A stretch of DNA of 64,000 bases from an uncultured bacterium. Its GTDB lineage: Bacteria > Omnitrophota > Omnitrophia > Omnitrophales > Abzuiibacteriaceae. The notes under the pieces are model-generated. The model searched no databases, was not told the origin of the DNA, and saw only the letters and a list, made by a program, of their open reading frames with translations. Both the position numbers and the translations under genes were made by a program. The DNA is taken from assembly GCA_964387845.1 (NCBI GenBank), contig CAYLXA010000002.1, positions 32,001 to 96,000 on the forward strand, read 5' to 3'. Within the stretch, counting starts at the first letter, position 1, and each line of letters begins with the position of its first letter. Positions 17,777 to 60,852 of the stretch are shown piece after piece.

Positions 17777-20700
17777 ATGATTTCCGAAACTACTTCGCCT
17801 TTACCTAATATTAAAACATCGATGAGACCTCGCACGCTGAGCTTGCTCGTCCTATCATTTTTCTTTGTGTCCGGCGCCTGCGGCTTAATGTATCAAGTCG
17901 TGTGGCTTCGGGTGATGGGCCTCGTTTTTGGAAACACGACCTATGCCACCAGTGCGGTACTGTCGGGTTACATGGCGGGATTGGGGCTGGGAGCGCTGTG
18001 CTTCGGCAAGTGGATTGACAAGCCGTCAGCAGGAGATCCGGTTAAGCTTTATGGAATTATGGAGGGCGGAGTCGGAGCTTACGCGCTTTTGACGCCGTTT
18101 ATTTGGTATTTCATCGATTGGATCAACATCGTTTTTTACCGCGCCTTTAATCCCGAATTTCTTCAATTCAGTCTATTCAAATTTGCAGTGTCATTTGTGT
18201 TTTTGTTCATTCCGACATTTTTGATGGGCGGCACGCTGCCGGTGTTAAGCAAATTTTATATAGAGCATCGCGATCAGATTGCGCACAAGGTGGGGATTTT
18301 ATATGCGCTCAATACGGCAGGCGCCGTGCTAGGCGTGATTTTCAGCGGTTTTTTTTGTTTGTATTATTTTGGCGTATGGCAAACCACGGTTTTGACAGCC
18401 GTTCTTAACCTTTTGATTTTTGCCGCATGCTGGTTCTGGATTAAGGGGAATGCTGCGGGCGCTAGCGCTTTGCCGCCCGAAATCGCCGTTCAAGAACTGC
18501 CGGCTCCATCAAAATCGCAGCCAAATGCGTACTATACGACGCTGCTTGTTTTATTTGGGATTTCCGGCGGCGTTTCCATGATGTATGAAATCGGATGGAC
18601 GCGCATACTCGCCATTGTCGTCGGAAGCTCTATCTACGCATTTTCGGTAATGCTGTCGACGTTTCTATTGGGCATCGCCCTCGGCAGCTTTTTGTTCAGC
18701 TGGCTCTCCAAGCGGATCAAAATCGACCTATCCATTTTTGCCACCTTGCAAGCCGCCACTGCATTATTTGCTTTTTTGGGCATGAATCAATTTGAAGAAA
18801 TGCCATACCGCTTTTTAAAGCTCTATCACTGGTCTAAGCACACACCGTTTTTAATCGAGCTTGGAAGATTCGCGCTTTGTACAATCGTTATGCTGGGCCC
18901 GACCATTTGCATCGGCGCCATGTTTGCTTGCTTTATTCATTTGTATCATCAGCAAGAGCGTTTGGGGGGCGATATTGGCACGGCTTATTTTGCGAATACT
19001 GTGGGGACTATTTTTGGTTCGGCGCTGACCGGCTTTTTGATTATCCCAATCCTGGGAATTTACAAAACACTCATGGCCGCCGCCGGATTAAATGCCGCGA
19101 TCGGCGCGATTGCGTTTATGATGAGTTTGCCTAACCGGCAACTCAGGCGGACAATTGCTTTTTCCGTCGTGTTTGTTTTTACTTGGGTTGGTGCTAGCCT
19201 AGCGCGCCCGTGGAATAAATCAGTAATCACAAGCGGGGCGGTGGTTCGTCCGAACATGCATAACGCCAATTCGCAAGAAGAGTTTATCCGGTCTATGGAA
19301 AACCGGCTTAATCTGTTCTATAAGGAAGGGACGAGCGCAACGGTCAGCGTTAACCGAGTGCGCGATGTTATTTCACTCGCAGTGAATGGAAAAACAGATG
19401 CCTCTAACGGAACCGACGCGTTCAATCAATTTTTGCTTGGCCACTTGCCGATGCTGTTAAATCCGGATGCGCAAAAGGTACTTACCATCGGCCTGGGAAG
19501 CGGTTCGACGGTTGCCGCAGTCGCGTCTTACGCGGTCAAACAGATTGATTGCGTCGAACTGGAAGCTGCCGTGGTTGAGGGCGCCAGATTTTTTTCGGAA
19601 CTGAATCGAAATGTGCTAAACGACCCCAGGCTTCGCATGATTGTGAATGACGGCCGCAATTACTTAAAAATCAATCCTACGCTGTATGATGTCATCATTT
19701 CCGAACCTTCAAATCCATGGATGGCCGGTGTCGCTAATTTGTTTTCGCGCGAGCATTACGAAACAATGAAAGCGCGTCTCGCGCCGCAGGGGATCGTGTG
19801 CCAATGGCTTCACGCTTACAGCATGTCCGATCAGGATATGCGTATGATTATTCGAACATTCACGCTGGTATTTCCAAATACAAGTCTATGGACATCGAAT
19901 TATCCTGACCTGCTTCTGCTCGGGTCGAATGAACCGATTGAAATAGATTATCTCGAATTAAAAAAATCCTTTAACCGTCCGGAGGTTTTACAGGATTTTG
20001 AACCCTACGGAATTAAAACAGCGGATGGTTTTCTAGGCGCTTTTTGGCTGGATGACGAAGCGTTGCGTAGTTTTTCCGAAGGAGCCCGAATCAACAGCGA
20101 TAATTACCCCTACCTAGAATTTTCGGCACCGCGCCATTTGTATGACGATACGGTGAGCAGTAATTATCATTTAATCAACGCTTTTGCGTCGAAGCAGTAT
20201 CCAAAAATTAAAAACCTGAATCCTCCGATTGATCAAAATATTGAGTTTCATGTCAATATTGCCAGAAGCAACTTTTACCGGAAAATATACGGGAGGGTCC
20301 AAAGCGAACTTGACTTCATCAAAGAGCTGGATCCTAAAAACCCGGACTTGATCGAAATTTTGGGAATGGTTCAGTATGAGATGGGGAACTTTACAGACGC
20401 AGAGCGGCTGTTATCTGAATCTTTGATTCAAAATCCTGATTCACCCGAAACCCACTTCTACTTTGGATTGATCCAGCAAAGGAAGAAGCGCCACGAAAAT
20501 GCGATATTTTCTTTTGGTGAAGCGATACAGCTCGATTCGCGTGCCGCTAAGTATTACATAGCGCTGGGTGATTCATTGATGGAAATGAATGCGTTTGTCT
20601 CTGCGGTTGATGCTTTTGATCAGGCTTTGATTTATTCGCCTGCCAAGTTTGACTTATTGATTCGGAAGGCTTCCGCTCTCAGCCGTATTGTGCCGATCAA

Positions 20701-21001
20701 CGAGCAAATCAGATTTACGGAAGAGTTGCTTGAAATGTACCCGAAACATGTGGCGCTTTATGAAATGTTGGGAAATCTTTATCAAAATAACCATCAGCGC
20801 GATGACGCGGAAAAAATTTATTTAAGGATGATTCAAGAGTTTCCCCTGGAGCCCAACAGTTATTTGCAGCTCGGCATTTTATACGGCAAGACGGGCTCAA
20901 TGATGAAAGCAAAAGAGCAGCTCAAGAAGGCTGTACGCTATGATCCGGAACTGTTAAAAAACCCTGAAATTCAAAAAGTACTTCAGTATAAAGGTGCCTA
21001 A
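17777..21001 (+). CDS. fused polytopic membrane domain / spermidine-synthase-like aminopropyltransferase domain / C-terminal TPR repeats
   Basis: 1074 aa. About 12 TM helices (aa 1-480). The central segment VLTIGLGSGSTV…DVIISEPSNPW…GIVCQWL matches the SpeE fold motifs GGGDG…D(S/P)xDP. The last ~300 aa are TPR-like repeats. Confidence 0.7.
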   Translation: MISETTSPLPNIKTSMRPRTLSLLVLSFFFVSGACGLMYQVVWLRVMGLVFGNTTYATSAVLSGYMAGLGLGALCFGKWIDKPSAGDPVKLYGIMEGGVGAYALLTPFIWYFIDWINIVFYRAFNPEFLQFSLFKFAVSFVFLFIPTFLMGGTLPVLSKFYIEHRDQIAHKVGILYALNTAGAVLGVIFSGFFCLYYFGVWQTTVLTAVLNLLIFAACWFWIKGNAAGASALPPEIAVQELPAPSKSQPNAYYTTLLVLFGISGGVSMMYEIGWTRILAIVVGSSIYAFSVMLSTFLLGIALGSFLFSWLSKRIKIDLSIFATLQAATALFAFLGMNQFEEMPYRFLKLYHWSKHTPFLIELGRFALCTIVMLGPTICIGAMFACFIHLYHQQERLGGDIGTAYFANTVGTIFGSALTGFLIIPILGIYKTLMAAAGLNAAIGAIAFMMSLPNRQLRRTIAFSVVFVFTWVGASLARPWNKSVITSGAVVRPNMHNANSQEEFIRSMENRLNLFYKEGTSATVSVNRVRDVISLAVNGKTDASNGTDAFNQFLLGHLPMLLNPDAQKVLTIGLGSGSTVAAVASYAVKQIDCVELEAAVVEGARFFSELNRNVLNDPRLRMIVNDGRNYLKINPTLYDVIISEPSNPWMAGVANLFSREHYETMKARLAPQGIVCQWLHAYSMSDQDMRMIIRTFTLVFPNTSLWTSNYPDLLLLGSNEPIEIDYLELKKSFNRPEVLQDFEPYGIKTADGFLGAFWLDDEALRSFSEGARINSDNYPYLEFSAPRHLYDDTVSSNYHLINAFASKQYPKIKNLNPPIDQNIEFHVNIARSNFYRKIYGRVQSELDFIKELDPKNPDLIEILGMVQYEMGNFTDAERLLSESLIQNPDSPETHFYFGLIQQRKKRHENAIFSFGEAIQLDSRAAKYYIALGDSLMEMNAFVSAVDAFDQALIYSPAKFDLLIRKASALSRIVPINEQIRFTEELLEMYPKHVALYEMLGNLYQNNHQRDDAEKIYLRMIQEFPLEPNSYLQLGILYGKTGSMMKAKEQLKKAVRYDPELLKNPEIQKVLQYKGA

Positions 21002-23875: not shown

Positions 23876-25812
23876 GTTTTCCGAAACGAAGCTGTTGTAA
23901 CGGAATCGTAAAACACCATCAAGATCTCATCAATCGGGATATCGGCCGTCAACTTAGGGTTCAAAATTTCAAATCGACCGTCCGTAACATTAACGAAACC
24001 AAAAGGCGCGATTTCACGGCTTGGCGCGGCAACCTGAACATAAACTTCGTAAATTCCGTCCGGAAATCCATCCCCTTGAATCAAATACCCCTCCTGCGTT
24101 AAACCGCTTTTTGCCGCTGCCTTTGGAAGCGATTCAGAGAAAAATTCATAACCAGTTTCATCTGCTATTCGGGGTTTTGCTGATAGCCGATAGGTATTAA
24201 CCTGCTCAATCAAAAGAGGTGCCTGTGTTTTGGGAATAGATTCCGTGATATAGAGCGTCGGATCACGATTAATAATAATCACATCGCCTTTTTTAATGAA
24301 TTGGTAAGAGCCGGGCCCTAAAACCAGTGGCTCGCTGGGGTTGTTGGCACGTTGCGGTAAATACGTCGTGATGGGCAGGTGATAGACTGGTTTTCCGGTA
24401 TAAAATTCGATCGCGTTACCGTAGAAGTGGTAGATGTATGTGACTTTATCGTTGATGTCAAAAACATAATCTTTGGGATGAATGGTATAGTAAGGCCCGA
24501 CCCAAAAAATACTAGAATTTTGAGACAAGCTTTTTGCGGCCTTGCTGATCTTGCCTGAAAAATCGTTCGAATAAACGGGATCGGCGAATTTTATGCACTC
24601 TGAAAATCCTTTCTGAAGAGGCGAGAAGGCAAACACAAAGCACAGCATGCCCGCAAAAGCATTCTTGATTTGATCCGATTTGATTCTGAGAGCTATAAAT
24701 TGAATAATTGCCAATGCGCCTTTCAGCGTGAAATAAAACACGGGCGGAAAGAGCGGAAACAAATAACGAGCTTCTCTGACGGCAATTACATAAGTTTGAA
24801 ATAGAAAAAAGGCAAAAAACCAAATGATGAAAAATAGTGACAATGGCCGCCTGTCCTTCGCTGACAGAAAAATCCCACCAACAAAAAGGAGATGGAGCGG
24901 AAAAGGAATCGATTTTAATAAAAATACATAGTTCCAGTTCGGGTTTTCCCAGCCTGTATTTTTTTGATACTGCGCAATCAGGTCTTGGACGAATTTCAGA
25001 ATTGACGAGTGCCATGGTGCTAAATCCAAAAGCGTATAGAGCAGGCCGGCCAGTAAGAAATAAACCGTAACCGGCACGATGAATAAAGCGATTAATTTCA
25101 CAAGCAAACCTACTTGTCGAGGCTTGCCCGTGCTCTTGATTTGAAAAACACGGTTAATGATTTCGTAGATAAGAAAAACGCCGAATAGAAACGGAATTAA
25201 GTTGTAGCGGATCCCGATTGCAAACATAGTCAAAATTCCAGCACTCCACAAAAAACCGGCATTTCCGGAGTTTTGACTCTTCCAATATAAATAAAATGCA
25301 GCCGAAGTGAATAAGGTGGCCGCAATGTCTTCTTTGGCAAACGGAGCATAGTGAATTAAGAGCGTATTGCCGGCCAGAAATAGAGTTCCGAGCAGCGCTT
25401 CGGTTTTACCAAATTCAAACCGCAAGAACTTGAAAAACACGAAAAGCAAAAGCAAGAACAAAGCAACGCAGGTCAGATGGACGGTTATCAGCGAGAAGTC
25501 GGGGCTTTGTGCCCATTGCTCTAAAATAAAGATCGGAGAAAGAAGGATCGGAAAAATAAAAGGTCTTTTCCAATAATAAGTCAGCGATTCATCCAATGTC
25601 GCAATTTTTCGGGCGTTGACCAGGGTTTCATAGGCGTCAAAAAAGTCAATTCTAAGGTGAAGCGCAACCCAAAATAGGTATAAGCCGAGAGCGACCAATA
25701 AGGAAACGATAATGAAGTTGATTTTGCTTCGAATGCGGTCTGTAAACGGGAGTGTTGCTTCAGGCAAGTTCAATCGGTGTACCTTTGCTGTTTTCGAAGC
25801 GCTAATCGACAA
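23872..25812 (-). CDS. polytopic GT-C-type membrane glycosyltransferase (ArnT/PMT-like)
   Basis: 646 aa, highly hydrophobic. Early loop DFFDAYETLVNARKIATLDESLTYYWKRPF is GT-C-like. Convergent with asnB, with stop codons overlapping. Confidence 0.6.
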   Translation of the reverse strand: MSISASKTAKVHRLNLPEATLPFTDRIRSKINFIIVSLLVALGLYLFWVALHLRIDFFDAYETLVNARKIATLDESLTYYWKRPFIFPILLSPIFILEQWAQSPDFSLITVHLTCVALFLLLLFVFFKFLRFEFGKTEALLGTLFLAGNTLLIHYAPFAKEDIAATLFTSAAFYLYWKSQNSGNAGFLWSAGILTMFAIGIRYNLIPFLFGVFLIYEIINRVFQIKSTGKPRQVGLLVKLIALFIVPVTVYFLLAGLLYTLLDLAPWHSSILKFVQDLIAQYQKNTGWENPNWNYVFLLKSIPFPLHLLFVGGIFLSAKDRRPLSLFFIIWFFAFFLFQTYVIAVREARYLFPLFPPVFYFTLKGALAIIQFIALRIKSDQIKNAFAGMLCFVFAFSPLQKGFSECIKFADPVYSNDFSGKISKAAKSLSQNSSIFWVGPYYTIHPKDYVFDINDKVTYIYHFYGNAIEFYTGKPVYHLPITTYLPQRANNPSEPLVLGPGSYQFIKKGDVIIINRDPTLYITESIPKTQAPLLIEQVNTYRLSAKPRIADETGYEFFSESLPKAAAKSGLTQEGYLIQGDGFPDGIYEVYVQVAAPSREIAPFGFVNVTDGRFEILNPKLTADIPIDEILMVFYDSVTTASFRKT

Positions 25813-26956
25813 CGACGACTTTTGCCGGAGGGAACCCGTTAAATGCGGCTACGGCACTGGCAGCCGAATAAGCTCCGATATTCTTGACGTAAATCACATT
25901 ACCGACGTCAAGCTCCGGAAGTTCCTCGCTGGCTGAAATCGTATCAAATGAATCGCAAGTCGGGCCGGCAAGCGTGCTTAAAAACCTTTGACCGCGGCGG
26001 AGAGTTTTGAATTCGTACTTGCAGTGATCAAAAACAATGCCCGAGAAATCCTGATAAATCCCATCATTCAAATAATAGTAATTTTTGTTATTCCGGAATG
26101 TGCGCCCCACGACTTCAGTCACTAAAATTCCTGCGGGGCCCACCAAAAAACGGCCCGGCTCAGCCATGAATTTCACGTCTTTATCAAACAAACGCTTCAT
26201 TTCGGTTTTGATGGCGCGCGCCATATTTTCGAATGTTGCGTGCTGGTCGTTGTCAAAGTGGCGGATCGGAAAACCGCCGCCGATATCAACCGTATTAAGA
26301 TAGATTCCTTCACGTTTTAATTCCTTGAAAATCGCCGACGTGACTTCGAGGGCTTGGACGTAGTTGCCGGTATTGGTGCACTGAGAGCCGACGTGAAAAC
26401 AGATGCCGGCTGGTGTTAAGCCGAGCTGTTTCGCTTTTTTCAGCAGGAAAGTGGCCTGATCGGGATCGGCGCCGAATTTGAGCGATAATTCGACTATGCT
26501 GCCCAAATTCGCGACCTTGATTCTTAGTAATACTTTGGCTCGCGGGCAATATTTGGCAATTTTGTATAGCTCGGGCTCATTGTCGAAAACGGTAAATTTT
26601 ACGCGGCAGGCACGCGCAAGCTTTAAATCCTCGGCAGATTTAATCGGATTGGCGAAGATGACTTGATCGGGCGAAGCGCCGAGGTCAATCACAGTCTTCA
26701 TTTCGGCTGCGCTCGCAACGTCAAATTTGGTGTTCAGCCGCAAAAATGTTTTGATGATTTCGGGGTTTGGATTGGCTTTGATCGCGTAATAAATCTGGAC
26801 CTGCGGCAGGTGTTTCTTGAAAAGCTGGTATTGCCTAATCAAAATACTGCGCTTGATCAGCATAAAAGGTGTCGAATGCTTCTTCAGAGATTTTCGGATC
26901 AGCGTTTCGACACCGTTCCCGGAAATTTGAGCTGTCTTGGTTAGGGTAGCGGGCAT
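25802..26956 (-). CDS. PLP-dependent fold-III decarboxylase, eukaryotic-type ornithine (or lysine/ornithine) decarboxylase-like
   Basis: Motifs YYAIKANPNP, FDVAS, VIFANPIK, KFGA, FHVGSQC and VDIGGGFP align with ODC family signatures. 384 aa. Confidence 0.7.
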   Translation of the reverse strand: MPATLTKTAQISGNGVETLIRKSLKKHSTPFMLIKRSILIRQYQLFKKHLPQVQIYYAIKANPNPEIIKTFLRLNTKFDVASAAEMKTVIDLGASPDQVIFANPIKSAEDLKLARACRVKFTVFDNEPELYKIAKYCPRAKVLLRIKVANLGSIVELSLKFGADPDQATFLLKKAKQLGLTPAGICFHVGSQCTNTGNYVQALEVTSAIFKELKREGIYLNTVDIGGGFPIRHFDNDQHATFENMARAIKTEMKRLFDKDVKFMAEPGRFLVGPAGILVTEVVGRTFRNNKNYYYLNDGIYQDFSGIVFDHCKYEFKTLRRGQRFLSTLAGPTCDSFDTISASEELPELDVGNVIYVKNIGAYSAASAVAAFNGFPPAKVVVVD

Positions 26957-26963
26957 CTAGGGA

Positions 26964-28415
26964 TCAACGGACCAAAAAGGTGTTGAACTGCCATGTCTCA
27001 TGCTCGGTCGGAATGTGGCCGTTTGTGTTTCGGAAAAGGCGAAATAAATTTTTCACAGGTGTCCAATCAACCGGCTGAGAAATAAAAGGCCCCAAGTAAG
27101 GCCTTGCGACTTTCATGATTTCATCATGGGGCAGGTCATCCGGAACGCAAACGCCTTCAGACGGATTCGCCATCATCCACATCACCGCCGCAAGCACCGA
27201 GCAAGCGACTTGAAGGGTGGTTGCATTTTGATGGGGTGCCAAGCGGCGAGCCTCTTCGATATCCAGCAAGCTTCCGGTCCACCAGGATTTGAAATCATGG
27301 CCCATGAGCAATACACCGAGTTCGTCGCGCCCGCTCACGATGTCGTCATTCAGGATGCGCTGCTTGCTTTGCAGGTCGAACTGGCGCATTTCAAGCTCAA
27401 TCAATGAATTCATCGCTGCATCGCAAGGACAGTAGGCATAGTGGACGGTAGGGCGGTAAACCGGCTTATCATCCTCCCAAACGGTTAAATAATCGGAAAT
27501 GGTGAATGCTTCACCGTGACGCACAACCATTCCCACAATCTCACCGCTCGGAACCCAGGAGCGAACCCACGTTTTAATACCGGGGCGGGCAAGGCAAATT
27601 TGATTACCGGGGCCTGATAAATGATAGTGCGCATCGGGCGGGAGGTTCATTTCGTGGGTTCCCCAGCCCATTTCGGCGGGTGCAATACCTTCTTCGCGAA
27701 AGCCTTCGACGCTCCAGGTGTTTACAAATTCATTCACTTCTTTTGGTTTGCGCGTAATCTGCGAATCGCGTTCACTGATATGAATGGTTTTCACGCCGCA
27801 AAGCTGCGCTAGCTTGGCGTATTGTTTATGGCGAAGGGCTTTTTGAATGTCCTTCAGCCGTGTTCGGGATTCCTTGGCTTTTGTTTTAAGGATTTTTTCA
27901 GCAATATCCTGAAGCGCTATTTTCGTGAAATGGGAAACGAGTCCGGGATTGGCGCCGTGATCCACAACCGCGCTCGGGCCCTTGTTGTTTTCCCAGCTAT
28001 TGATCAGCTTTCGGATCGCCATTTGGCGGACATAAAGGGTAAGCTCGGTCGGGTGCTGTTCTGTGCCTCCAAAATAAGGGTCCCAAAGCTCAACGGAAGT
28101 GTTGATGTAATTGACGCCGTTTTGATGGCACCAATTGAGAATTTCGACCGTGTCGATGTTGTAGGCCAAATCAACGATCATATCGCCCTGGCCGACAAAT
28201 TGTTTCAGGATCTTGGCGTAATTATCTTTTGTAATTTCTTTTTGTGTGTACTTAACGCCTTTGGCGAGAACGTCTTTTACGTGGCGCCGATTGTCGATCA
28301 TGTCCATGATCGTGATTTTTTCGGTCGGCATTTCGATGTGTTTCAAAAACAAAGGCAGTGTGCATTGCGAAACAGAGCCGCAGCCAATCACTAATAATTT
28401 TCCGTTAAATTTCAT
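26964..28415 (-). CDS. hss: homospermidine synthase (saccharopine-dehydrogenase family)
   Basis: 483 aa. N-terminal LLVIGCGSVSQCTLPL NAD fold. Conserved HSS blocks VNTWSVEGF, AEMGWGTHE, VHYAYCPCD, DELGVLLMGH, APHQNATTLQVA and the WQF…LVR C-terminus match the bacterial HSS I recall. Confidence 0.75.
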   Translation of the reverse strand: MKFNGKLLVIGCGSVSQCTLPLFLKHIEMPTEKITIMDMIDNRRHVKDVLAKGVKYTQKEITKDNYAKILKQFVGQGDMIVDLAYNIDTVEILNWCHQNGVNYINTSVELWDPYFGGTEQHPTELTLYVRQMAIRKLINSWENNKGPSAVVDHGANPGLVSHFTKIALQDIAEKILKTKAKESRTRLKDIQKALRHKQYAKLAQLCGVKTIHISERDSQITRKPKEVNEFVNTWSVEGFREEGIAPAEMGWGTHEMNLPPDAHYHLSGPGNQICLARPGIKTWVRSWVPSGEIVGMVVRHGEAFTISDYLTVWEDDKPVYRPTVHYAYCPCDAAMNSLIELEMRQFDLQSKQRILNDDIVSGRDELGVLLMGHDFKSWWTGSLLDIEEARRLAPHQNATTLQVACSVLAAVMWMMANPSEGVCVPDDLPHDEIMKVARPYLGPFISQPVDWTPVKNLFRLFRNTNGHIPTEHETWQFNTFLVR

Positions 28416-33661: not shown

Positions 33662-34779
33662 GCGAAAGAATTTTATTGGTGCAGGTGGATTGGCGGCGGG
33701 CCAATCGGTTTCATCAGGAAGATGAAAGGGAAATGACAGAACTCGTCCGTTCAGCCGGCGGTTCGCTCCTTTCCGTGATTCGGGCATCGATCGATAAGCC
33801 GGCACCGTCTCACTTCATTCGATCTGGAAAAGTCGAGGAACTGAAGCAAAAACGAATTGCGAGCAGCGCGACGCTTGCTATTTTCAATATTGATCTGACG
33901 CCGGTTCAGGCGCGCAATATTGAACAGGATTGCGGGCTGAGAGTTGTCGACCGGACCGGTTTGATTTTGGATATTTTTGCGCTTCGTGCACAATCCCGCG
34001 AAGGAAGATTGCAGGTCGAGCTTGCTCAGCTTAATTATTTATTGCCGCGCCTCGTCGGAAAAGGTGTTTTGATGTCGCGTTTGGGCGGCGGTATCGGCAC
34101 CCGCGGACCCGGTGAACAAAAACTGGAAATCGACCGCCGTAAAATCAGAGCTCGGATTTCTCGGATCAAAAATGATTTGAAGAAAGTCGCCAAACACAGA
34201 GAGCTTCTCCGAAAATCCCGAAAGCGCAAAGCATTCGCGCTCGTGTCTGTCGTGGGTTATACGAATGCAGGAAAAAGCACGCTTTTGAATGCGCTCACCG
34301 GATCACACGTTTTAGCTGAGAATAAATTATTCGCAACGCTCGATCCCACGACGCGGATTTATGAAACAAAAAACGGTGCAAAGTTTTTGCTGACGGATAC
34401 GGTCGGATTTATTCAAAATCTGCCGCATAACCTGGTGGAAGCATTTAAAGCCACACTGGAAGAAGTGACGGAGGCCGATATTTTGATTCATGTATTGGAT
34501 GTTTCGAATCCGTTTGTCGAGCATCAGTACGACACGGTAAACAAAGTTCTCGAAGATTTAAAAGCGCAGGAGAAGCCCGTGGTGCTGGCGCTTAATAAAA
34601 TTGACCAGCTGCTCGCGCCCGAAATCGACCGGTTTGTTTCAAAATTTCAGGGCTCGATCCCCGTTTCGGCAAAAAACAAAAGCAATCTTGATGAGCTCAT
34701 CAGCCGGCTTGAAGAAATGATGGCTGGACAAAACATTCTCCACAATACCGAAAAGTTTGATCAGGGGCTCGTGACGTGA
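33658..34779 (+). CDS. hflX: GTPase HflX
   Basis: HflX N-domain followed by G1 GYTNAGKST and G3 DTVGF motifs. 4-nt overlap with miaA. Confidence 0.85.
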   Translation: MSERILLVQVDWRRANRFHQEDEREMTELVRSAGGSLLSVIRASIDKPAPSHFIRSGKVEELKQKRIASSATLAIFNIDLTPVQARNIEQDCGLRVVDRTGLILDIFALRAQSREGRLQVELAQLNYLLPRLVGKGVLMSRLGGGIGTRGPGEQKLEIDRRKIRARISRIKNDLKKVAKHRELLRKSRKRKAFALVSVVGYTNAGKSTLLNALTGSHVLAENKLFATLDPTTRIYETKNGAKFLLTDTVGFIQNLPHNLVEAFKATLEEVTEADILIHVLDVSNPFVEHQYDTVNKVLEDLKAQEKPVVLALNKIDQLLAPEIDRFVSKFQGSIPVSAKNKSNLDELISRLEEMMAGQNILHNTEKFDQGLVT

Positions 34780-35324
34780 AGAAAACACTGCCCACCGTCG
34801 GTCAAAAATTGATTTATCAAGGGTGTGTTGTGCGCCTAGAGGAATTAAAACTTAAAGCGCCGGACGGAACGCACATTAAACGCGAACTGATCCGACATTA
34901 CGGCTCGGCCGTGATTGTGCCACTTTTAGATCGCGACCACTTTGTGCTGGTCTATCAATACCGCGTGGCCTCCAACAGCTACATGCTCGAGTTTCCCGCT
35001 GGGACCAAAGAGCGCAATGAATCGCCTCTCGCCTGTGCAAAGCGCGAAATTGTTGAGGAAATTAATTATTCAGCCGGGAAGTGGGTAAAGCTCGGCAAAT
35101 TTTATCCGGCACCGGGTGTTTCTACGGAACTCATGCATATGTATTTGGCCATGAATTTAAAGCCGCAAGTCGGCAAAATGGACGATGATGAATGGCTGGA
35201 GACACGCGTGCTCACGCGGCGTGAGCTGAGGCGCCAAATTGACCAAGGCAAAATCGTCGACGCCAAAACCGTCATCGGGTTCTTCTTGCTATTGGAATAT
35301 GAGAAGGGCCTTGGGCGGCGGTAG
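34776..35324 (+). CDS. NUDIX hydrolase (ADP-ribose pyrophosphatase-like)
   Basis: Nudix box GTKERNESPLACAKREIVEE. Confidence 0.8.
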   Translation: MKKTLPTVGQKLIYQGCVVRLEELKLKAPDGTHIKRELIRHYGSAVIVPLLDRDHFVLVYQYRVASNSYMLEFPAGTKERNESPLACAKREIVEEINYSAGKWVKLGKFYPAPGVSTELMHMYLAMNLKPQVGKMDDDEWLETRVLTRRELRRQIDQGKIVDAKTVIGFFLLLEYEKGLGRR

Positions 35325-35410: not shown

Positions 35411-36532
35411 ATGAGCGAACCTTTACAGCTTAAATTAAGCGACAAAGAATTAATTCAGAGAAAGGCCGAAGTATTGGCAAAGCCCATTGCTTCGATTGAT
35501 TTAGAGAAAATCACCAGCCTGTCGGACTTGGTCGATTCCTTCAAAAATACATCCATTCAAGCCCGGAATGTCGGAGCCTGTGCGGATATTTTTGGCCGGA
35601 TGCTGCAGGACTCAGAACGCCCGACGATTTTGCTCGGATTGGCGGGGCCTTTGATTGCGGCAGGCCTCCGCAAAGTGATCCGGGACATGATCGAATACAA
35701 CATGGTGGACGTGGTTGTTTCAACTGGTGCTATTTTGTATCAAGATTATTATCAGGCGCGCGGCGGCAGGCATTTCCGAGGAACGCCGGATGCGGACGAT
35801 TCGGAGCTTCGTGATCTTTACATCGACCGGATTTACGATACCTACGTAGATGAAGAAAAATTTTGGAGCTTTGACATTGAAATCGGCCGCTTCGCTGATC
35901 AGCTGCATCCGGGGGAATATTCCACGCGCGAATTTTTGCATTTGCTCGGAAGCACGATTACGGACAATGACTCCATTCTGGGAACGGCGAGCAAGCACGG
36001 TATTCCGGTGTTTTGCCCCGCGATCAATGATTCCAGTATCGGAATCGGACTAACCGAACATTATCACCGCGCAAAGAAACAAAATAAAAAGGGAATTACG
36101 ATCAGTTCAATCCGCGATAATTATGAGCTGACCCAAATTGTTGTTAATTCCAAACGCACCGCAGCTTTTTATGTGGCGGGCGGTGTTCCAAAAAATTACA
36201 TTAATGACTCGGTCGTGATGAGCTACATCTTCGGAAAAGATACGGGCGGCCACAAATACGCAATTCAACTCACGACCGATTCGCCGCACTGGGGCGGATT
36301 AAGCGGCAGTACGTTATCTGAGGCAAAATCGTGGGGCAAAGTGAACACCGAAGCCAACACCAGCATGGCGTTTGTGGAGCCATCGGTATCGCTTCCGCTG
36401 GTGGTGGGCTCAGCGCTCCATAAAAAGTTGTATCAAGGCCGCAAACGGCTCCAATTTCAATGGGATCATGACGAATTAACGCAAATCTCGTCGGAATTGA
36501 ATACTCAAAAGAAGGCGGCAGCACTCAAATGA
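35411..36532 (+). CDS. deoxyhypusine synthase-like protein (bacterial DHS-like homospermidine synthase family)
   Basis: 373 aa. Conserved DHS blocks LAGPLIAAGLR…MVDVVVSTGA and C-terminal GGLSGST…AKSWGK. Confidence 0.7.
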   Translation: MSEPLQLKLSDKELIQRKAEVLAKPIASIDLEKITSLSDLVDSFKNTSIQARNVGACADIFGRMLQDSERPTILLGLAGPLIAAGLRKVIRDMIEYNMVDVVVSTGAILYQDYYQARGGRHFRGTPDADDSELRDLYIDRIYDTYVDEEKFWSFDIEIGRFADQLHPGEYSTREFLHLLGSTITDNDSILGTASKHGIPVFCPAINDSSIGIGLTEHYHRAKKQNKKGITISSIRDNYELTQIVVNSKRTAAFYVAGGVPKNYINDSVVMSYIFGKDTGGHKYAIQLTTDSPHWGGLSGSTLSEAKSWGKVNTEANTSMAFVEPSVSLPLVVGSALHKKLYQGRKRLQFQWDHDELTQISSELNTQKKAAALK

Positions 36533-37488
36533 AAGCACTGGTAACGGGCGGCGCGGGTTTTATCGGATCCAACTTGGCAATCACTTTAGAATCGCAAGGG
36601 ATCGATGTGACGGTTCTGGATAATTTCAAGTCCGGCGATTTCCGGAATCTGAGTGATTTCAAAGGCGATGTCACTGCGCAGGATGCAGCAGAAACGGATT
36701 GGAATGTGCTTCCGAAGTTTGACGTCATTTTCCATCAACAGGCCATCACCGACACGACAGTGCTTGATCAAAAATGGATGCTCGCGCAAAATGTGGAAGC
36801 TTTTCGCGGTTTGGTTGACTATTGTACCGGTAAGAAAATTCCTCTGATTTATGCTTCATCTGCAGGGGTTTACGGTAACGAGCCGCCGCCGCAGTGTGAA
36901 AATGGGCCGTTAAAACCGCTCAATATCTATGGCTTTTCGAAATTGTTAATGGATCGTCTGACGTTCAAGACAATCAAAACTGCCAAAAGCCCAATCGTGG
37001 GCTTGCGTTATTTCAACGTGTTCGGGCCGCGCGAGCAGTACAAAGGAAAAGCGGCGAGCATGATCTATCAACTGTCGGAGCAGATCCGCGCTGGAAAAAA
37101 GCCCCGGATTTTTGAATTTGGCGAGCAGGAACGCGATCATATTTATGTCAAAGATGTTGTGAGCGCTAATTTGTGCGCCTGGAAATCCGGGAAAAGTGGT
37201 GTTGTGAATGTGGGAACCGGCAAGCCGACTTCCTTCAACCGGCTGCTCGAAATTATTAAAGAATTTTTTGGAACAAACGTTGAAACCGAATATTTCAAAA
37301 ATCCGTATGATTTTTATCAAAATCATACATGCGCGGATGCTTCAAGTGCGCAAAAGTTGATCGGCTTTAAAGCCGAATGGAGTATCGAAAAGGGAATTAA
37401 GGATTATTTGGGTATATTGTATTCAGAAAAGAAATCAAGCTCTCTCAATCAATCTGCTAAGAAAACTCGCCAAAAAGTCACGTCTTAA
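36529..37488 (+). CDS. hldD: ADP-L-glycero-D-manno-heptose-6-epimerase-like SDR
   Basis: [13 protein letters not shown]…VLDN N-terminus. YGFSK catalytic motif. RYFNVFGP block typical of HldD/UDP-sugar epimerases. Confidence 0.6.
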   Translation: MKALVTGGAGFIGSNLAITLESQGIDVTVLDNFKSGDFRNLSDFKGDVTAQDAAETDWNVLPKFDVIFHQQAITDTTVLDQKWMLAQNVEAFRGLVDYCTGKKIPLIYASSAGVYGNEPPPQCENGPLKPLNIYGFSKLLMDRLTFKTIKTAKSPIVGLRYFNVFGPREQYKGKAASMIYQLSEQIRAGKKPRIFEFGEQERDHIYVKDVVSANLCAWKSGKSGVVNVGTGKPTSFNRLLEIIKEFFGTNVETEYFKNPYDFYQNHTCADASSAQKLIGFKAEWSIEKGIKDYLGILYSEKKSSSLNQSAKKTRQKVTS

Positions 37489-41207: not shown

Positions 41208-42665
41208 GTGGCGGAAAATATGCCAAGCATAGCGGCACGACTTGATCGGGTCGAATTGCGAATCCTGGCTTTTTTATCCGCACAACTCCTGCTTGCCTTC
41301 TGCATTTACCAATCGATCCTCAAGCTCCGGGAAGCCTACTACCGACTCCTTGCATTACATCACATTTCCTTTTATTGCTCTGTCGCGCTGATTGCAATTC
41401 TTTTGGGGTGGTTTGGGTTGAAAAAAATCGGTGCATTTATTACCGGAATGATTGCATCCTGCGCCGCCATTTTGTGCGCCATCGTAATGAGTGAAAGCTG
41501 GCTTATTATTTTTCCTCTCAGTTATTTGTTTCTCTTTTTATTAATCCAAATTGTTGAGAAACGGTATTCGGATGAGTGCGTGGTCCGCGAGGTTGAAATC
41601 GATAAATATTTGGCAGGAAAAAATGATCTAGAGCTTGCCTTCATTGAAAAAGGGCGGGGTATCAGCGTTTGCTTTGAAAAGTATTCAACTTACTATAACT
41701 TGCGCCGCTTGGCAGATGAATTTTCAACCACCTTCCAGCTTTCGGAGCTTGGAACAATCGTGGTGAATCGCACAATCGAATTTATTCAGCGCGGCAGTTC
41801 GTGCTTGTTATTTTTAGCGTCGCATGAGCACGATCAAATTTCTTTAATTGCATCAAAATACAGCACGCCGAACCAAAAGAGGCCGCTTCGAAAGCTGGGA
41901 GATATTCTAGATTTTTGGGTACTGCGCAACCGCCAGCATCTGCTCGTGAATGATTTACAAAATGATTTTCGTTTTGACCTTAGAAAAGCCACAGCGCTTG
42001 AAAATTTGGCGAGTGCTATTTTGGCGCCGATCACGCACGAGGGAAAGGTGGTGGGTACGCTGCGAATTAATTCAGAGAAGCCGGACTCATTCACAACCGA
42101 CCACTTGCGGCTTCTGGATGCGATCGCCACTCTGGCATCGTCGGCTTTGTCGAATGCGCTTTTGTATCAAAAAACAGAAGAGCTTGCAATTCGCGACTCA
42201 CTGACCGGCCTGTATGTGCACCGCTATTTTCTGGATCGCTTGAAGGATGAGCATCAACGAGCATTGTTAAATCATGAAAATTTGTCTCTTCTGATGTGCG
42301 ACTTGGATCATTTTAAAAATATCAATGACCACTACGGGCATGCGATCGGTGATTTGGCTTTGCAGCGCTTGGCGCGAGTGCTTCGAACGCACTGCGAGCA
42401 TGCGATTGTTGCCCGGTACGGCGGTGAGGAGTTTGCCGTTTTACTTCCGCAGATTACAAAAGTCGAAGCCAAAAAATTAGCCGAGAAGATTCGTCAGCAG
42501 GTAGAAACGGAACGCATTGAGATCAGGCGCGATGTTTTGCCGGTCACAGTATCAATCGGTGTTGCCAACATCCCCGACGATACGCTCGATTCGGAGGAGC
42601 TCATCCGGCTTGCCGATACGCGCCTTTATCAGGCCAAGCATGAAGGACGAAACCGCGTATGTTGA
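41208..42665 (+). CDS. membrane-anchored GAF-GGDEF diguanylate cyclase
   Basis: N-terminal TM helices, a GAF-like middle domain, RYGGEEF active site and RxxD I-site. Confidence 0.8.
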   Translation: MAENMPSIAARLDRVELRILAFLSAQLLLAFCIYQSILKLREAYYRLLALHHISFYCSVALIAILLGWFGLKKIGAFITGMIASCAAILCAIVMSESWLIIFPLSYLFLFLLIQIVEKRYSDECVVREVEIDKYLAGKNDLELAFIEKGRGISVCFEKYSTYYNLRRLADEFSTTFQLSELGTIVVNRTIEFIQRGSSCLLFLASHEHDQISLIASKYSTPNQKRPLRKLGDILDFWVLRNRQHLLVNDLQNDFRFDLRKATALENLASAILAPITHEGKVVGTLRINSEKPDSFTTDHLRLLDAIATLASSALSNALLYQKTEELAIRDSLTGLYVHRYFLDRLKDEHQRALLNHENLSLLMCDLDHFKNINDHYGHAIGDLALQRLARVLRTHCEHAIVARYGGEEFAVLLPQITKVEAKKLAEKIRQQVETERIEIRRDVLPVTVSIGVANIPDDTLDSEELIRLADTRLYQAKHEGRNRVC

Positions 42666-44095
42666 AAACATTCAGCGCATTTTTAACAGCAATCGTTTTT
42701 TTGATAGCGGCATTCCTTCAGTCAAATAACCAAATTGATCACCTTGCTGCGTATACCACCGTTTCATTGGTGGCCACTTTGTACTTGCTGAGCCTGGAAA
42801 AGCGCTGGATGGCAAAAATAATCGGAGGATGGTTTTTGATCGGGCTTGTTATTAAATCAAAAGTGATCGGACCTGTTTATTCGGCCATGCTTTCATTTAG
42901 TTTTGCTTCAATTGTACTTCTTTGGCTGTATTTTCTGACGACTTGGAAAGAAAAATTAGCATTTGTTGATCTTCAACGGAAGCGAGTAGATGACGATACG
43001 CGCATTCTAAAGGATAAATATGATGCGCGCGACGAAAGCCTGTCGCATTTGGAGCGGCAAGTTACCGGCCTGCAAAACTTGTTTGAGGTTGCTCGCGACT
43101 TCAATGAATGCCTTACGTATGACGAATTGATCTTAACGTTAAGCCAGAAAGTGCGCTCAGAGATTCCTTATCGAAAATTGGCGTTGTCCGTGTTGGATTC
43201 TAAAGGGGCAAACAGCAGGGAGATTGTTAAAGTTTTTGCGGTTAGTGATGTCAAAGAGAATATCGGCGATTCACAGCCTCCAACCGACTTTGATAAATTT
43301 TGTTTTAGCCAGGTCCAGGATGGTAAGAAAGTGGTGCAAATCTCTGCTGCGCAGGCTAAGTCGTTTGACTATCTCCGGGAGGTTTCGGTTGATTTTCCGC
43401 TCTGGATTTTCTCGATTTACTCAAAGGAAAAAATGATCGCAACCCTCTCGGTTCAGGGGGCTATGGATGACGATTTCCCAAAGTATGAGTTGTTGGTTTC
43501 GCAATTGGCTCTCCAAGTCAAAAAAATCGAACTTTACGAAACAGTGAAGGAATTGTCGATTGTGGATGGGTTGACAAAGGTTTTTGTCAGGCGCCACTTT
43601 TTGGAGCGCTTTGAGGAAGAATTAAAGCGTGCCATCAAACGTCGTAACCCATTGACTGTTTTATTATTAGACATCGATAACTTCAAAAGTTATAATGACA
43701 CCTTCGGACATCTGGTGGGGGATGGTACGTTACGTGAAGTGGCGGCAGTTATTCGCGAGCACGTAAGAAAAGTGGATTTGGTGGCGCGTTACGGAGGGGA
43801 AGAATTTGTGATTGTCATGCCTGAAATTACCAATCCCTTCAATATCGAATCTGCGGAAAGAATCCGGTCTGCAGTTGCTCAGAGAAAATTCCGGATTTAT
43901 GATGAGGAAACGCGCGTAACCGTCAGCATTGGTTTAGCATCGTTTCCGTCAGATTTGGATGAACCGCGAGTTTCCGAGTTTCAAGAACCGCTAATGCTGG
44001 AATTGATTCAAAAGGCCGACAAAGCTCTTTATCGCGCAAAGGAAGACGGTCGTAATCGAGTGGTCAGTTATCATTCAATTCAAAATAAGGGGTAA
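42659..44095 (+). CDS. membrane-anchored GAF-GGDEF diguanylate cyclase (paralog)
   Basis: Same architecture as the upstream DGC. RYGGEEF motif. The start overlaps the upstream stop (ATGTTGA). Confidence 0.8.
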   Translation: MLKTFSAFLTAIVFLIAAFLQSNNQIDHLAAYTTVSLVATLYLLSLEKRWMAKIIGGWFLIGLVIKSKVIGPVYSAMLSFSFASIVLLWLYFLTTWKEKLAFVDLQRKRVDDDTRILKDKYDARDESLSHLERQVTGLQNLFEVARDFNECLTYDELILTLSQKVRSEIPYRKLALSVLDSKGANSREIVKVFAVSDVKENIGDSQPPTDFDKFCFSQVQDGKKVVQISAAQAKSFDYLREVSVDFPLWIFSIYSKEKMIATLSVQGAMDDDFPKYELLVSQLALQVKKIELYETVKELSIVDGLTKVFVRRHFLERFEEELKRAIKRRNPLTVLLLDIDNFKSYNDTFGHLVGDGTLREVAAVIREHVRKVDLVARYGGEEFVIVMPEITNPFNIESAERIRSAVAQRKFRIYDEETRVTVSIGLASFPSDLDEPRVSEFQEPLMLELIQKADKALYRAKEDGRNRVVSYHSIQNKG

Positions 44096-44774: not shown

Positions 44775-47114
44775 ATGGGTTTCTTACACAATCGTTTCAT
44801 GAAACAAGCTGCCTGTATATTATGGGTGTGTTTCCTTGTCTTTTTATTTCAGCCGCATCTCAAAGCCGAAGAAAGCAACGCGGCATCACAAGAACGTTCA
44901 ATAGTTGAGCCGGATGATTCCGGAGATATTCCCGTCGAAGTAGTCGCCGATGATGTCGACTATTTTAAAGACGAACAAAAAACGATTGGGCGCGGCAATG
45001 TGGTGGTGACTCGGGATGATGTCAAGCTGCTTGCGGATTATGTGGAAGTTTACACGGATACCAAAAAGGCATTTGCAGAAGGGCATGTAACGGTTATTCG
45101 CGCCGGTAAAACTCAAATTTCTGGCGATAAGGGCTTTTACGATTTCAAAAACCACCAGGGGTCTTTCCCGAATTCCCAAATGATCTCGTCGCCGTGGTAT
45201 ATCACCGGCGAGCAAGCCGAACAGGTCGCAAAAGATCAAATCAATTTATACCAGGCCATCGTCACAACTTGTCCCTATCAAGATTCGCATTGGGATATTA
45301 AAGCAAAGCAAGTAGTTGTGTATCCGGGCGACAAAATGATTGCCTGGAATATTAAGCTCCGCATTTTAAAAGTTCCTGTTTTCTGGTGGCCGTACATGAT
45401 TATCCCGCTTGATCAGGATACCGGCCCATTTGAATTGCATCTGGGTCAATCCAAGTCTCATGGCAACTACGCTTTGATTGGCAAAACTTATTCGATCATT
45501 CCTCAGTCAGAAGGCCGAGAGCTTAAGACAAAAGTTCATGTCGATTTGCGCAAAAAACGCGGAACAGCCGTTGGCAATCAACTGTGGTATCACTTTGATA
45601 AAATCGGAGACGGGCATGCAAAATTATATTGGATAAAAGATGCCCGAGCGCCGGATCCCGCCTATTATTCTCCCGGCGATGGGTTTCGTAAAAAGCAGCG
45701 TTATCGTGTTACCTGGAAGCACAGAACTGATTTTGGTCCGTTTACTAATTTAATAGCGCAGTGGAACAAGTTTAGCGACCGCGAAATCTTGCACGATTTC
45801 TTTGAGCGAGAGTTTGATGAAGAGCCAATTCCTCAATCGTTTGCCACATTTACACATAACAGTGACAGATATGGCTTCTTGATTGATATTCAACGACAGG
45901 CGAATTCATTTGATAATGTGCTTCAAAGGCTTCCCGAAATACGCTTTAACTGGCGGGATCAGGAAATTAAGCAAACAGGCGTCTACTATAATTCACAGAC
46001 TCAATACGTGAATTATCATTACATCACACACGCAAACCGGACTGACCCTTCAGACGAATCTGGCCGCAAACGCTTGGTAACTGACGTGGAGTCTGACATT
46101 TCCAGGGCTGACACCTTTCATGAGATTTCTTATCCGAAACGATATTTAAGATATTATGATTTTACGCCGCGAGCAAATATGAGGGTCACTCATTTTAGTG
46201 AGAATTTGGCTAATGAGAAACGTGATTTTAGAAGAGTTTTTGGGCTTGGCGGAGAAGCTAGTACGCGTTTTTATCGGTTCTTTGAAGTGCCGAAGGGCAA
46301 TTTTTTAGGTATCCAAGCGGACCGAATTCGGCATGTTCTTAAACCCACGGTTTCATATTTTGCCAACCGCCTTGTTTCAACGCGCCCATCTTTGCTGAAA
46401 CAATTTGACGGAATTGATGGCATTGCAGTTTCTGACACCATTCGTTTTGGGCTTGAGAATAGAATCCAAACCAAATCTAAAGGCAAACGAGTAGATATCG
46501 TAAGCTTAAATGCCTATGTGGATTACGTTTTTAATAACTCAGAGCGCGATACCCGGTTTCAAACGGGTGCGGCGGAAGTGATTCTCCGGCCTTATCCGTG
46601 GTTCCAACTACAAAGCAAGGCATTGTTCGACATGAAAGCCCATCGCAGAACCGAACAGGTAACGGACGCCGTTGTGAGAACCAAATATATTGATTTCTCG
46701 GTTTACCATCGCTATGTGATGACGACCTCAGAAGCGCTTGCCGCTGACAATAATTTTAGCAAGGAAACCAACGTGGTTGCCTTTAAAGGCGAAACAAGAA
46801 TGAATGAAAGATGGAAAATCGCCGGTTATTTCAGATTTGATGCACGGCGGCATTCTTGGAGAGAGTATGAGTGGGAAATTATCCGTGATTTGCATGACTG
46901 GACAGTATCTTTTGGACAAAATATTCGTCATTCCGAAATTAATTATTTGGATCATGAGCTTTTCTTCGAGCTTCAGCTAAAAGCACTTCCGGGTGTTAAG
47001 TTTTCAACCGGCCAGCGTGCAAATTTCTCGGATGCTCGAATTGGCGAAACAGTATCGGGCGCCAATCAGTCGCCGGCCCCCAATTCACTTTTGCCATCGC
47101 CTAGCACGGGTTAA
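44775..47114 (+). CDS. lptD: LPS-assembly outer-membrane protein LptD (OstA family)
   Basis: Signal peptide. N-terminal OstA/LptA-like beta-jellyroll (VVADDVDYFKDEQ…GNVVVT). Large C-terminal beta-barrel with Y/F-rich alternating strands. 779 aa. Confidence 0.8.
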   Translation: MGFLHNRFMKQAACILWVCFLVFLFQPHLKAEESNAASQERSIVEPDDSGDIPVEVVADDVDYFKDEQKTIGRGNVVVTRDDVKLLADYVEVYTDTKKAFAEGHVTVIRAGKTQISGDKGFYDFKNHQGSFPNSQMISSPWYITGEQAEQVAKDQINLYQAIVTTCPYQDSHWDIKAKQVVVYPGDKMIAWNIKLRILKVPVFWWPYMIIPLDQDTGPFELHLGQSKSHGNYALIGKTYSIIPQSEGRELKTKVHVDLRKKRGTAVGNQLWYHFDKIGDGHAKLYWIKDARAPDPAYYSPGDGFRKKQRYRVTWKHRTDFGPFTNLIAQWNKFSDREILHDFFEREFDEEPIPQSFATFTHNSDRYGFLIDIQRQANSFDNVLQRLPEIRFNWRDQEIKQTGVYYNSQTQYVNYHYITHANRTDPSDESGRKRLVTDVESDISRADTFHEISYPKRYLRYYDFTPRANMRVTHFSENLANEKRDFRRVFGLGGEASTRFYRFFEVPKGNFLGIQADRIRHVLKPTVSYFANRLVSTRPSLLKQFDGIDGIAVSDTIRFGLENRIQTKSKGKRVDIVSLNAYVDYVFNNSERDTRFQTGAAEVILRPYPWFQLQSKALFDMKAHRRTEQVTDAVVRTKYIDFSVYHRYVMTTSEALAADNNFSKETNVVAFKGETRMNERWKIAGYFRFDARRHSWREYEWEIIRDLHDWTVSFGQNIRHSEINYLDHELFFELQLKALPGVKFSTGQRANFSDARIGETVSGANQSPAPNSLLPSPSTG

Positions 47115-47202
47115 TCAAATTGTTAACGATGGCAGAATCCAAAATTCATTTTTCTTCTAATTACTACAGCGTCATTAACAATCAAACTTCGATAAGCCAA
47201 AA

Positions 47203-48495: not shown

Positions 48496-48515
48496 TTCGT
48501 GATGAGTTGTTATTT

Positions 48516-49496: not shown

Positions 49497-49497
49497 C

Positions 49498-50394: not shown

Positions 50395-50395
50395 G

Positions 50396-51727: not shown

Positions 51728-51743
51728 AAATTGGGGGAAGTGT

Positions 51744-56772: not shown

Positions 56773-56820
56773 AGCGCATTATAGCTGCCATGCCTTAAAG
56801 TGCAATTCATAAGGCGTTGA

Positions 56821-56848
56821 TTGACAATTTGAGGAATTGCTTTAAAAT
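56821..56848 (+). promoter_or_regulatory. sigma-70-like promoter TTGACA-N16-TAAAAT in a divergent GT4/GT4 spacer
   Basis: TTGACA at ~56821 and TAAAAT at ~56843, about 50 nt upstream of the GT4 start at 56898. Confidence 0.45.
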
Positions 56849-56897
56849 GGATGTTTCCAATTTGTAAATATCATAACCTATTGTAATACAATAACTT

Positions 56898-58028: not shown

Positions 58029-58031
58029 TCA

Positions 58032-60849: not shown

Positions 60850-60852
60850 TAT

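Follow-up and report, generated by a model that had tools for sequence, protein, structure and literature searches.

Agmatine can be coupled by bacterial relatives of deoxyhypusine synthase (DHS). Thermus CdmS joins two agmatines into N1,N9-bis(guanidino)homospermidine (G44G); it differs from human DHS in the property-changing replacements of Asp243 by Phe (Phe204) and of Asp316 by Leu (Leu286), whereas the catalytic Lys is retained, as is a Glu for which a role in guanidinium binding has been proposed (PMC10981699). In a September 2026 study in the Journal of Biological Chemistry (JBC), all eight tested SpeY homologues, from diverse phyla, form G44G, eukaryotic DHS and homospermidine synthase (HSS) make none, and dedicated ureohydrolases or iminohydrolases convert G44G and so complete the pathway (PMC13625781). 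The stretch analysed here, 64,000 nucleotides from an uncultured Omnitrophota bacterium (the window), carries a DS-family gene (deoxyhypusine synthase-like, SpeY-like) at 35411..36532 (+). Within the known SpeY/DHS-like kind, this gene is a new and uncharacterised member and falls in a separate subfamily. By analogy with the tested enzymes, its product (window DS) is on balance probably a SpeY-type, NAD-dependent agmatine homocoupling (G44G) synthase that works toward homospermidine.

Agmatine coupling is the preferred function because window DS has CdmS-like substitutions at columns 243 and 316, because a sister subclade with a near-identical active site (15 of 17 columns) sits in clusters of arginine decarboxylase (ADC), DS and agmatinase genes, because members of its own subclade have arginine- or guanidino-related neighbours (L019 and L020), because the subfamily is strictly conserved, and because every one of the eight tested SpeY homologues makes G44G. 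The fold, the kept catalytic residues, the subfamily, the gene contexts and the co-occurrence with HSS are direct results of the analysis. We infer that the substrate is agmatine and the product G44G, and that the ADC and hydrolase partners are encoded outside the window. If the chemistry follows CdmS and SpeY, bound NAD+ would oxidise the primary amine end of agmatine, ammonia would leave, and the 4-guanidinobutyl unit would pass as an imine onto Lys310. Attack by a second agmatine and reduction by NADH would then give G44G, from which a guanidino-hydrolase, with its gene at another place in the genome, would free homospermidine. The separate, complete-looking route from ornithine through putrescine to homospermidine, by ornithine decarboxylase (ODC) and HSS, would run in parallel.

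The original prediction, made from the sequence of this stretch, had placed a DHS-like enzyme here as an alternative route to homospermidine. The alternative route is borne out for bacterial DHS homologues in general, but it does not start directly from putrescine or spermidine, since agmatine is first converted to G44G. Given the CdmS-type substitutions at 243 and 316 and the loss of Asp243, Asp316 and His288, putrescine and spermidine, which had been suggested for an assay, would be the wrong substrates.

Active site

The gene has an ATG start, with a Shine-Dalgarno-like AAGG just 5' of it, and encodes 373 amino acids. The protein matches Pfam PF01916 (DS) with E 1.2e-87 and 294.3 bits against a gathering cutoff of 27, and the match covers profile positions 1-286 of 288, so that the DS domain is full-length and the predicted DHS-like enzyme is confirmed. 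It is a real and apparently active bacterial homologue of deoxyhypusine synthase. The residues described below were mapped by phmmer alignment to human DHS and by MAFFT columns (columns in human DHS numbering).

Window DS shares with canonical DHS (human DHPS, Pyrococcus 7cmc and the Sulfolobus-type 8put) the full-length Pfam domain, the SWGK motif and the NAD glycines, and an enzyme-imine mechanism via the Lys would be expected for it. The S307-W308-G309-K310 motif (36329..36340, +), in which K310 corresponds to the human catalytic Lys329, is invariant throughout the clade. Trp327 (W308), Glu323 (E304), Asp238 (D207) and Lys287 (K261) of human DHS are also kept, as is the NAD glycine loop (human G282-G284), with G257 and G258 in the G257-G-V-P-K261-N262 motif (36179..36196, +). 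Asp238 belongs to the NAD-binding elements, and of the other such positions Asp342 is E323 in window DS, a conservative change, Glu137 is Q111, and Asp313 is W294, with D290 at column 309. The full pattern of NAD-site residues is invariant across the clade.

Unlike canonical DHS, window DS has none of the residues His288, Asp243 and Asp316, and it is 29% identical to the human enzyme. N262 stands where human DHS has the essential His288, Ile212 (36044..36046, +) stands in the column of the spermidine-binding Asp243, and Leu297 (36299..36301, +) in that of Asp316, where archaeal DHS also has Leu. Asp313, Glu137 and Asn106 are W294, Q111 and P80, respectively. The host also sets it apart from the canonical enzymes, being a bacterium, presumably without a/eIF5A. 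A check of the NAD- and spermidine-binding residues had been proposed together with one of the catalytic Lys. The Lys is present, so the protein is no obvious pseudoenzyme, and the NAD glycines and D207 are in place; the expected residues are replaced at Glu137 and Asp313 of the NAD site and at Asp243, Asp316 and His288.

The resulting pattern is that of CdmS, with hydrophobic residues at 243 and 316 and a retained Glu and Lys (I212, L297, E304 and K310 in window DS; F204, L286, E293 and K299 in CdmS). Window DS and the SpeY/CdmS enzymes also have in common their superfamily and fold, the substrate-tunnel Trp and Glu, and Asn at column 288, the last as in P0132, a Sphingomicrobium cluster representative that passes the G44G-synthase model and is about 38-40% identical to window DS. 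The change from His288 to Asn was considered as a marker of small-molecule versus protein substrates and was rejected. When the 95 nearest full-length representatives of 50% clusters are compared, almost every one has Asn in this column, P0132 among them, and Asn is also found in P0170 and P0200, clusters that pass archaeal DHS equivalogs; His is limited to a few canonical DHS-type clusters.

Window DS falls below every NCBIfam equivalog cutoff. The DHS equivalogs score 253.3 against 304.25 (TIGR00321), 334.6 against 434 (NF002006, DHS PRK00805), 254.1 against 364 (NF002630), 168.1 against 350 (NF002294) and 155 against 380 (NF003052), and NF001980 (homospermidine biosynthesis protein) scores 195.5 against 450. 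The clade members P0064 and P0121 also fail both NF001980 and the G44G-synthase model NF002699. Failure of all curated equivalog cutoffs, and the replacement of residues essential in the human enzyme (H288N, D243I, D313W, E137Q, N106P), are what a redundant or decaying paralogue, a pseudoenzyme, might display. Such a state is nevertheless very improbable. The open reading frame (ORF) is unbroken, with translational coupling to hldD. Members from at least ten phyla carry these replacements without variation (H288N being common to P0132 as well), which already implies purifying selection. The loss of Asp313 is apparently made good by Asp290, at column 309, in a paired swap between subclades. The closest relative has a DS that is 85% identical, with synteny fully conserved.

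Subfamily and distribution

An exhaustive homologue search over 1.84 billion 50%-identity cluster representatives found one full-length representative (P0121) and partial sequences at 60% identity or above; the next full-length representatives are 42-47% identical to window DS. The subfamily has 52-85% identity inside and at most 47% to all else. A locus survey, in which one genome per GTDB species was scanned, gave 67 loci, made up of 63 clade members and four outliers (40-46%).

The clade is spread over at least ten phyla with invariant active-site residues, which argues for a functional enzyme. It includes Nitrospinota (with the abundant marine Nitrospina), Omnitrophota (to which the closest named relatives also point as the probable phylum of the window), Margulisiibacteriota, "Deltaproteobacteria" metagenome-assembled genomes (MAGs) and Nitrospira, many Planctomycetota and Phycisphaerae, and also Acidobacteriota, Hydrogenedentota, Anaerolineales and Spirochaetia. 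A link from the abundant marine members to a tested SpeY through SAR11/Fonsibacter was rejected, as these members are Nitrospinota. Archaeal members are found in Hadarchaeota, at 61-64% identity. Among archaeal MAGs, clade members at 56-64% lie in Hadarchaeota (L028:9977-11095 and L030:9995-11104) and in a "Methanobacteriota archaeon" (L074:7512-8561).

Trees were built by neighbour-joining and are rough, with no support values. They resolve two sister subclades that are identical in 15 of 17 active-site columns. The difference is a paired swap, with Asp309/Trp313 in subclade I, which holds the window (D290 at column 309 and W294 at column 313), and Ala309/Asp313 in subclade II. Window DS is 62-85% identical to subclade I (median 68%) and 52-63% identical to subclade II (median 58%).

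The subfamily is large and highly conserved, takes in many Planctomycetota as well as the Nitrospinota, which dominate marine nitrite oxidation, and lies outside the curated models, so that a single enzymology result would annotate thousands of genes. Its phylogenetic place is intermediate, with DHS-like sequences of archaea on one side and validated SpeY on the other, a position suited to asking whether archaeal agmatine-type DHS is the bacterial SpeY with or without a protein acceptor.

Gene context of the relatives

Gene context was examined in 76 sequences (75 loci and a 22-kb slice of the window), whose ORFs were called, clustered and searched with seed proteins. No family is kept beside DS across all phyla in this sample. 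Four loci of subclade II (L048, L049, L058 and L063), with DS proteins 57-61% identical to that of the window by tblastn, have a pyruvoyl-dependent ADC gene directly 5' of DS and, no more than about 1 kb away, a gene of the arginase family. The latter was scanned in L048 and L049 and in both passes TIGR01230, the model for agmatinase. Of the four decarboxylases only that of L049 was scanned, and it passes TIGR00286; the ADC gene of L048 and both partner genes of L058 and L063 are assigned by tblastn identity (55-71%) to the L049 genes. The speY cluster of Caldilinea aerophila, which has been validated by experiment, shows this ADC-DS-agmatinase arrangement too (PMC13625781). A 642-amino acid gene beside the L048 agmatinase was considered as SpeA and rejected, since its product is pectate-lyase-like.

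Most DS genes of subclade I stand alone among housekeeping genes, and association with an ADC or a hydrolase is seen there as hints only. In L019 and L020 the DS gene lies beside AstA-like, ArgE/DapE-like and DDAH/arginine-dihydrolase-like guanidino-modifying genes. The other hint comes from cultured or enriched Nitrospinota, in which aguA/aguB are reported as present and speB as missing (PMC10753782). The DDAH/arginine-dihydrolase-like enzyme next to DS (L019:1637-2629, L020:4209-5138) has a pentein fold and scores below all curated cutoffs. It is a candidate hydrolase that would turn the guanidino groups of agmatine or G44G into amines in one step. The same pentein-type enzyme occurs about 2.4 kb from an HSS-ODC pair in another locus (L103:11056-11976). 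The original prediction was to be given up if orthologues were always standalone and without polyamine context. Most are standalone, but the four sister-subclade loci with ADC and agmatinase, and one with HSS, show that this does not hold throughout.

Several observations weigh against agmatine coupling by window DS. The subfamily is previously uncharacterised and has no assayed member, and a search from the subclade II protein of L048 returned MAG proteins only, with no tested organism such as Caldilinea. The G44G-synthase model NF002699 scores 333.2 against a cutoff of 500, and identity to sequences of this type is only 38-42%. The whole clade has Pro (Pro80) at the human-106 column, where the NF002699-type group has Ser; CdmS Ser67, a proposed guanidinium ligand, would presumably map to this column. 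The nearest named relatives outside the clade, at about 40-47%, are archaeal MAG proteins from Hydrothermarchaeaceae and Bathyarchaeia, and by sequence the clade is as close to archaeal DHS-like proteins as to validated SpeY. In about 35 loci of subclade I there is no adjacent ADC or agmatinase gene. No ADC, agmatinase or deiminase is found among the scanned ORFs of the 64-kb window (those at 44775-47114 and 58032-63626 were left out of the family-library scans), nor is a guanidino-hydrolase, so that the agmatine pathway is incomplete as seen there. The host also has a complete-looking ODC-HSS route already, in the face of a published claim that a SpeY route and an HSS route exclude each other (PMC13625781). 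Window DS differs from SpeY/CdmS in belonging to a tight clade whose long branch places it closer to sequences labelled as archaeal, in having Pro for Ser at column 106 and Asp309/Trp313 for Ala309/Asp313, and in lying without an ADC or hydrolase partner and with HSS and ODC. It is alike in that genes of its sister subclade occur in ADC-SpeY-agmatinase clusters like that of Caldilinea.

The archaeal affinities raise a second function, in which window DS modifies a protein. It would be the bacterial counterpart of archaeal agmatine-type DHS and would transfer a (guanidino/amino)butyl group onto EF-P or another protein lysine, with agmatine or HSS-made homospermidine as donor. Archaea require DHS for aIF5A. 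The archaeal-labelled nearest relatives, the Hadarchaeota members of the clade, and the Asn288 shared with P0170 and P0200 would suit such a function. So would the median identity of 68% across phyla, as expected when a conserved protein is recognised, the mostly standalone setting of subclade I genes among housekeeping genes, and the Lys-type loop TPGKGR of Nitrospinota EF-P. A protein substrate would also account for coexistence with a complete ODC-HSS route. The gene contexts point the other way. The efp gene is not a conserved neighbour of DS, being about 9 kb away by synteny within Nitrospinota and present in one Bacteroidales outlier, and the sister subclade sits in polyamine clusters of ADC, DS and agmatinase. 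The conserved ORF of 133-140 amino acids downstream of DS in Hadarchaeota was considered as aIF5A and rejected, since its product resembles NikR, a regulator of the ribbon-helix-helix type. Among the window ORFs scanned there is neither an aIF5A nor an efp gene. A January 2026 review finds no experimental evidence tying bacterial DHS orthologues to EF-P (PMC12856214), and bacteria have never been found to contain hypusine (PMC2821294). A protein lysine or EF-P as acceptor, which the original prediction had entertained, is thus left without support from neighbours or literature, and protein modification by window DS is judged distinctly unlikely. For subclade I as a whole (Omnitrophota, Nitrospinota, Margulisiibacteriota, Hadarchaeota and others), a role as protein lysine modifier outside the homospermidine pathway is given an equally small chance. 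If true, it would supply the long-sought bacterial counterpart of hypusination; if window DS is merely another SpeY, the result is ordinary pathway bookkeeping.

The Bacteroidales outlier (L070:8440-12462) encodes a SpeY-type DS (41%), with an alanine-racemase-fold decarboxylase gene upstream and efp about 1 kb downstream. In no other locus does efp lie close to a DS gene, and this closeness is probably coincidental.

Homospermidine synthase and ornithine decarboxylase

The bacterial HSS gene of the window, for the putrescine-dependent route, is at 26964..28415 (-). Its product has Sacchrp_dh domains and matches the solved structures 2ph5, 4plp and 6s65 over its full length, with E 4e-102 over residues 2-462 against 2ph5 and about 1e-99 over residues 2-482 against 4plp. 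The predicted HSS 7 kb from DS is therefore genuine, and the two enzymes are unrelated, as had been proposed, with non-homologous folds. The HSS enzymes of Blastochloris viridis (4plp) and Legionella (2ph5) have a saccharopine-dehydrogenase-like fold without a catalytic Lys imine, and they use putrescine rather than agmatine to make homospermidine in one step. Shared with window DS are NAD as prosthetic group and the end product, homospermidine, that would result.

Beside HSS lies an alanine-racemase-fold ornithine (Lys/Orn) decarboxylase-type gene at 25802..26956 (-), with the Pfam domains Orn_Arg_deC_N/C. Its closest solved homologue is the Lys/Orn decarboxylase 5gjm (E 2e-82), and among solved proteins it is closest to bacterial Lys/Orn decarboxylases and eukaryotic ODCs. 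Of 80 metagenomic HSS loci, almost all have this decarboxylase gene directly next to HSS, which makes hss-odc a conserved two-gene module. The 646-amino acid ORF beside the window decarboxylase is a PMT-type glycosyltransferase.

That DS and HSS lie near each other seems to be a coincidence of synteny and not the sign of an operon, because the two genes are on opposite strands with housekeeping genes between them, because HSS is missing from the equivalent position in the 68% identical relative L008, and because a DS gene within 10 kb of HSS occurs in one lineage only among the 80 HSS loci. Co-occurrence in one genome is a different matter. In a Planctomycetota MAG of subclade II (L034), DS (9298-10413) and HSS (11127-12584) are co-directional and about 0.7 kb apart, and this HSS is also genuine (E 1e-100 to solved HSS). 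The presence of DS and HSS in one genome is thus real and arose at least twice, in the window and its relative L001 in subclade I and in L034 in subclade II. The window, L001/L002 and the independent L034 contradict the claimed mutual exclusivity of SpeY and HSS, and as counter-examples they prompt one to ask which purpose a second enzyme would serve.

One answer would be that the end product is a guanidino-polyamine, either G44G itself (caldomycin) or what would form if putrescine, or homospermidine from HSS, received a guanidinobutyl unit. Both variants would explain why ODC and HSS are also present (co-occurrence with HSS arose twice) and would agree with the absence of a hydrolase partner from the window and from the vicinity of most subclade I genes; G44G is also stable and accumulates when the hydrolase is absent (PMC10981699, PMC13625781). 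However, co-location with HSS is rare (the single lineage in 80 loci), and hydrolase genes may sit elsewhere in the genome, as is reported for aguA/aguB in Nitrospinota (PMC10753782). Such an end product or hetero-coupling is considered unlikely, and agmatine coupling toward homospermidine is retained as the preferred function of window DS.

A distant DS-superfamily protein of 321 amino acids, about 23% identical to window DS and with TWEK replacing SWGK, was also noted. A protein of this type is encoded 5-9 kb from HSS-ODC in three metagenomic loci (L123:4307-5272 (-), L121:1209-2171 and L113:19871-20830). It may belong to the GSU2086-type family.

Other genes in the window

Gene context (RpoN, HldD, LptD) identifies the host as a bacterium. 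The DS gene is near the end of a co-directional string of housekeeping genes, in the order nadE, ogt, argS, miaA, hflX, nudix, DS and hldD. The nudix hydrolase gene (NudE-like) upstream of DS, at 34776..35324 (+), was assigned by family scans and from the loci of relatives, and its conservation at this place is confined to Omnitrophota relatives. Scans for promoters and terminators around the DS gene gave counts no higher than chance.

The downstream gene hldD (ADP-glyceromanno-heptose 6-epimerase) is at 36529..37488 (+) and scores 308.6 with TIGR02197, above the cutoff of 274.6. The TGA stop of DS and the ATG of hldD share the ATGA at 36529-36532, a 4 bp overlap that agrees with the co-directional overlap originally described. 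An HldD-like short-chain dehydrogenase/reductase (SDR) epimerase gene also lies directly downstream of DS in L007, L008, L035, L036, L037, L039, L042 and L064, and upstream in L055 (Acidobacteriota). The adjacency thus occurs in both subclades, in Omnitrophota, Planctomycetota and Margulisiibacteriota (downstream) and in one Acidobacteriota locus (upstream). The neighbouring HldD is 85% identical to that of the window in the close relatives L001/L002 and 29-57% identical elsewhere. We are not aware of any functional connection of polyamine chemistry with heptose epimerisation.

A SpeE-like fusion of 1074 amino acids is encoded at 17777..21001 (+). Its N-terminal half is hydrophobic, a Spermine_synth domain covers residues 553-712, and tetratricopeptide (TPR) repeats make up the C-terminal part. 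It is surrounded by GT2, PMT_2 and asparagine-synthase genes, and a counterpart (70% identical) is found only in the close relative L076. The polyamine handled by the fusion had been put forward as a possible acceptor for DS. A link between DS and the fusion was rejected: the fusion is conserved, and the two co-occur, in no more than that one close relative, and it lies within a glycosyltransferase cluster and not adjacent to polyamine genes.

Sugar-nucleotide and glycosyltransferase clusters flank the DS/HSS region on both sides (1-24000 and 47000-64000 of the window). They encode many SDR epimerases/dehydratases, UDP-glucose dehydrogenases, a DegT aminotransferase, a B12-radical SAM enzyme, and GT1, GT2, GT4 and PMT_2 glycosyltransferases. 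Two tandem GGDEF diguanylate cyclase genes at 41208-44095 (+) are conserved in the 85% identical relative, and in L001 the first of them has similarity to a GAF-type sensor.

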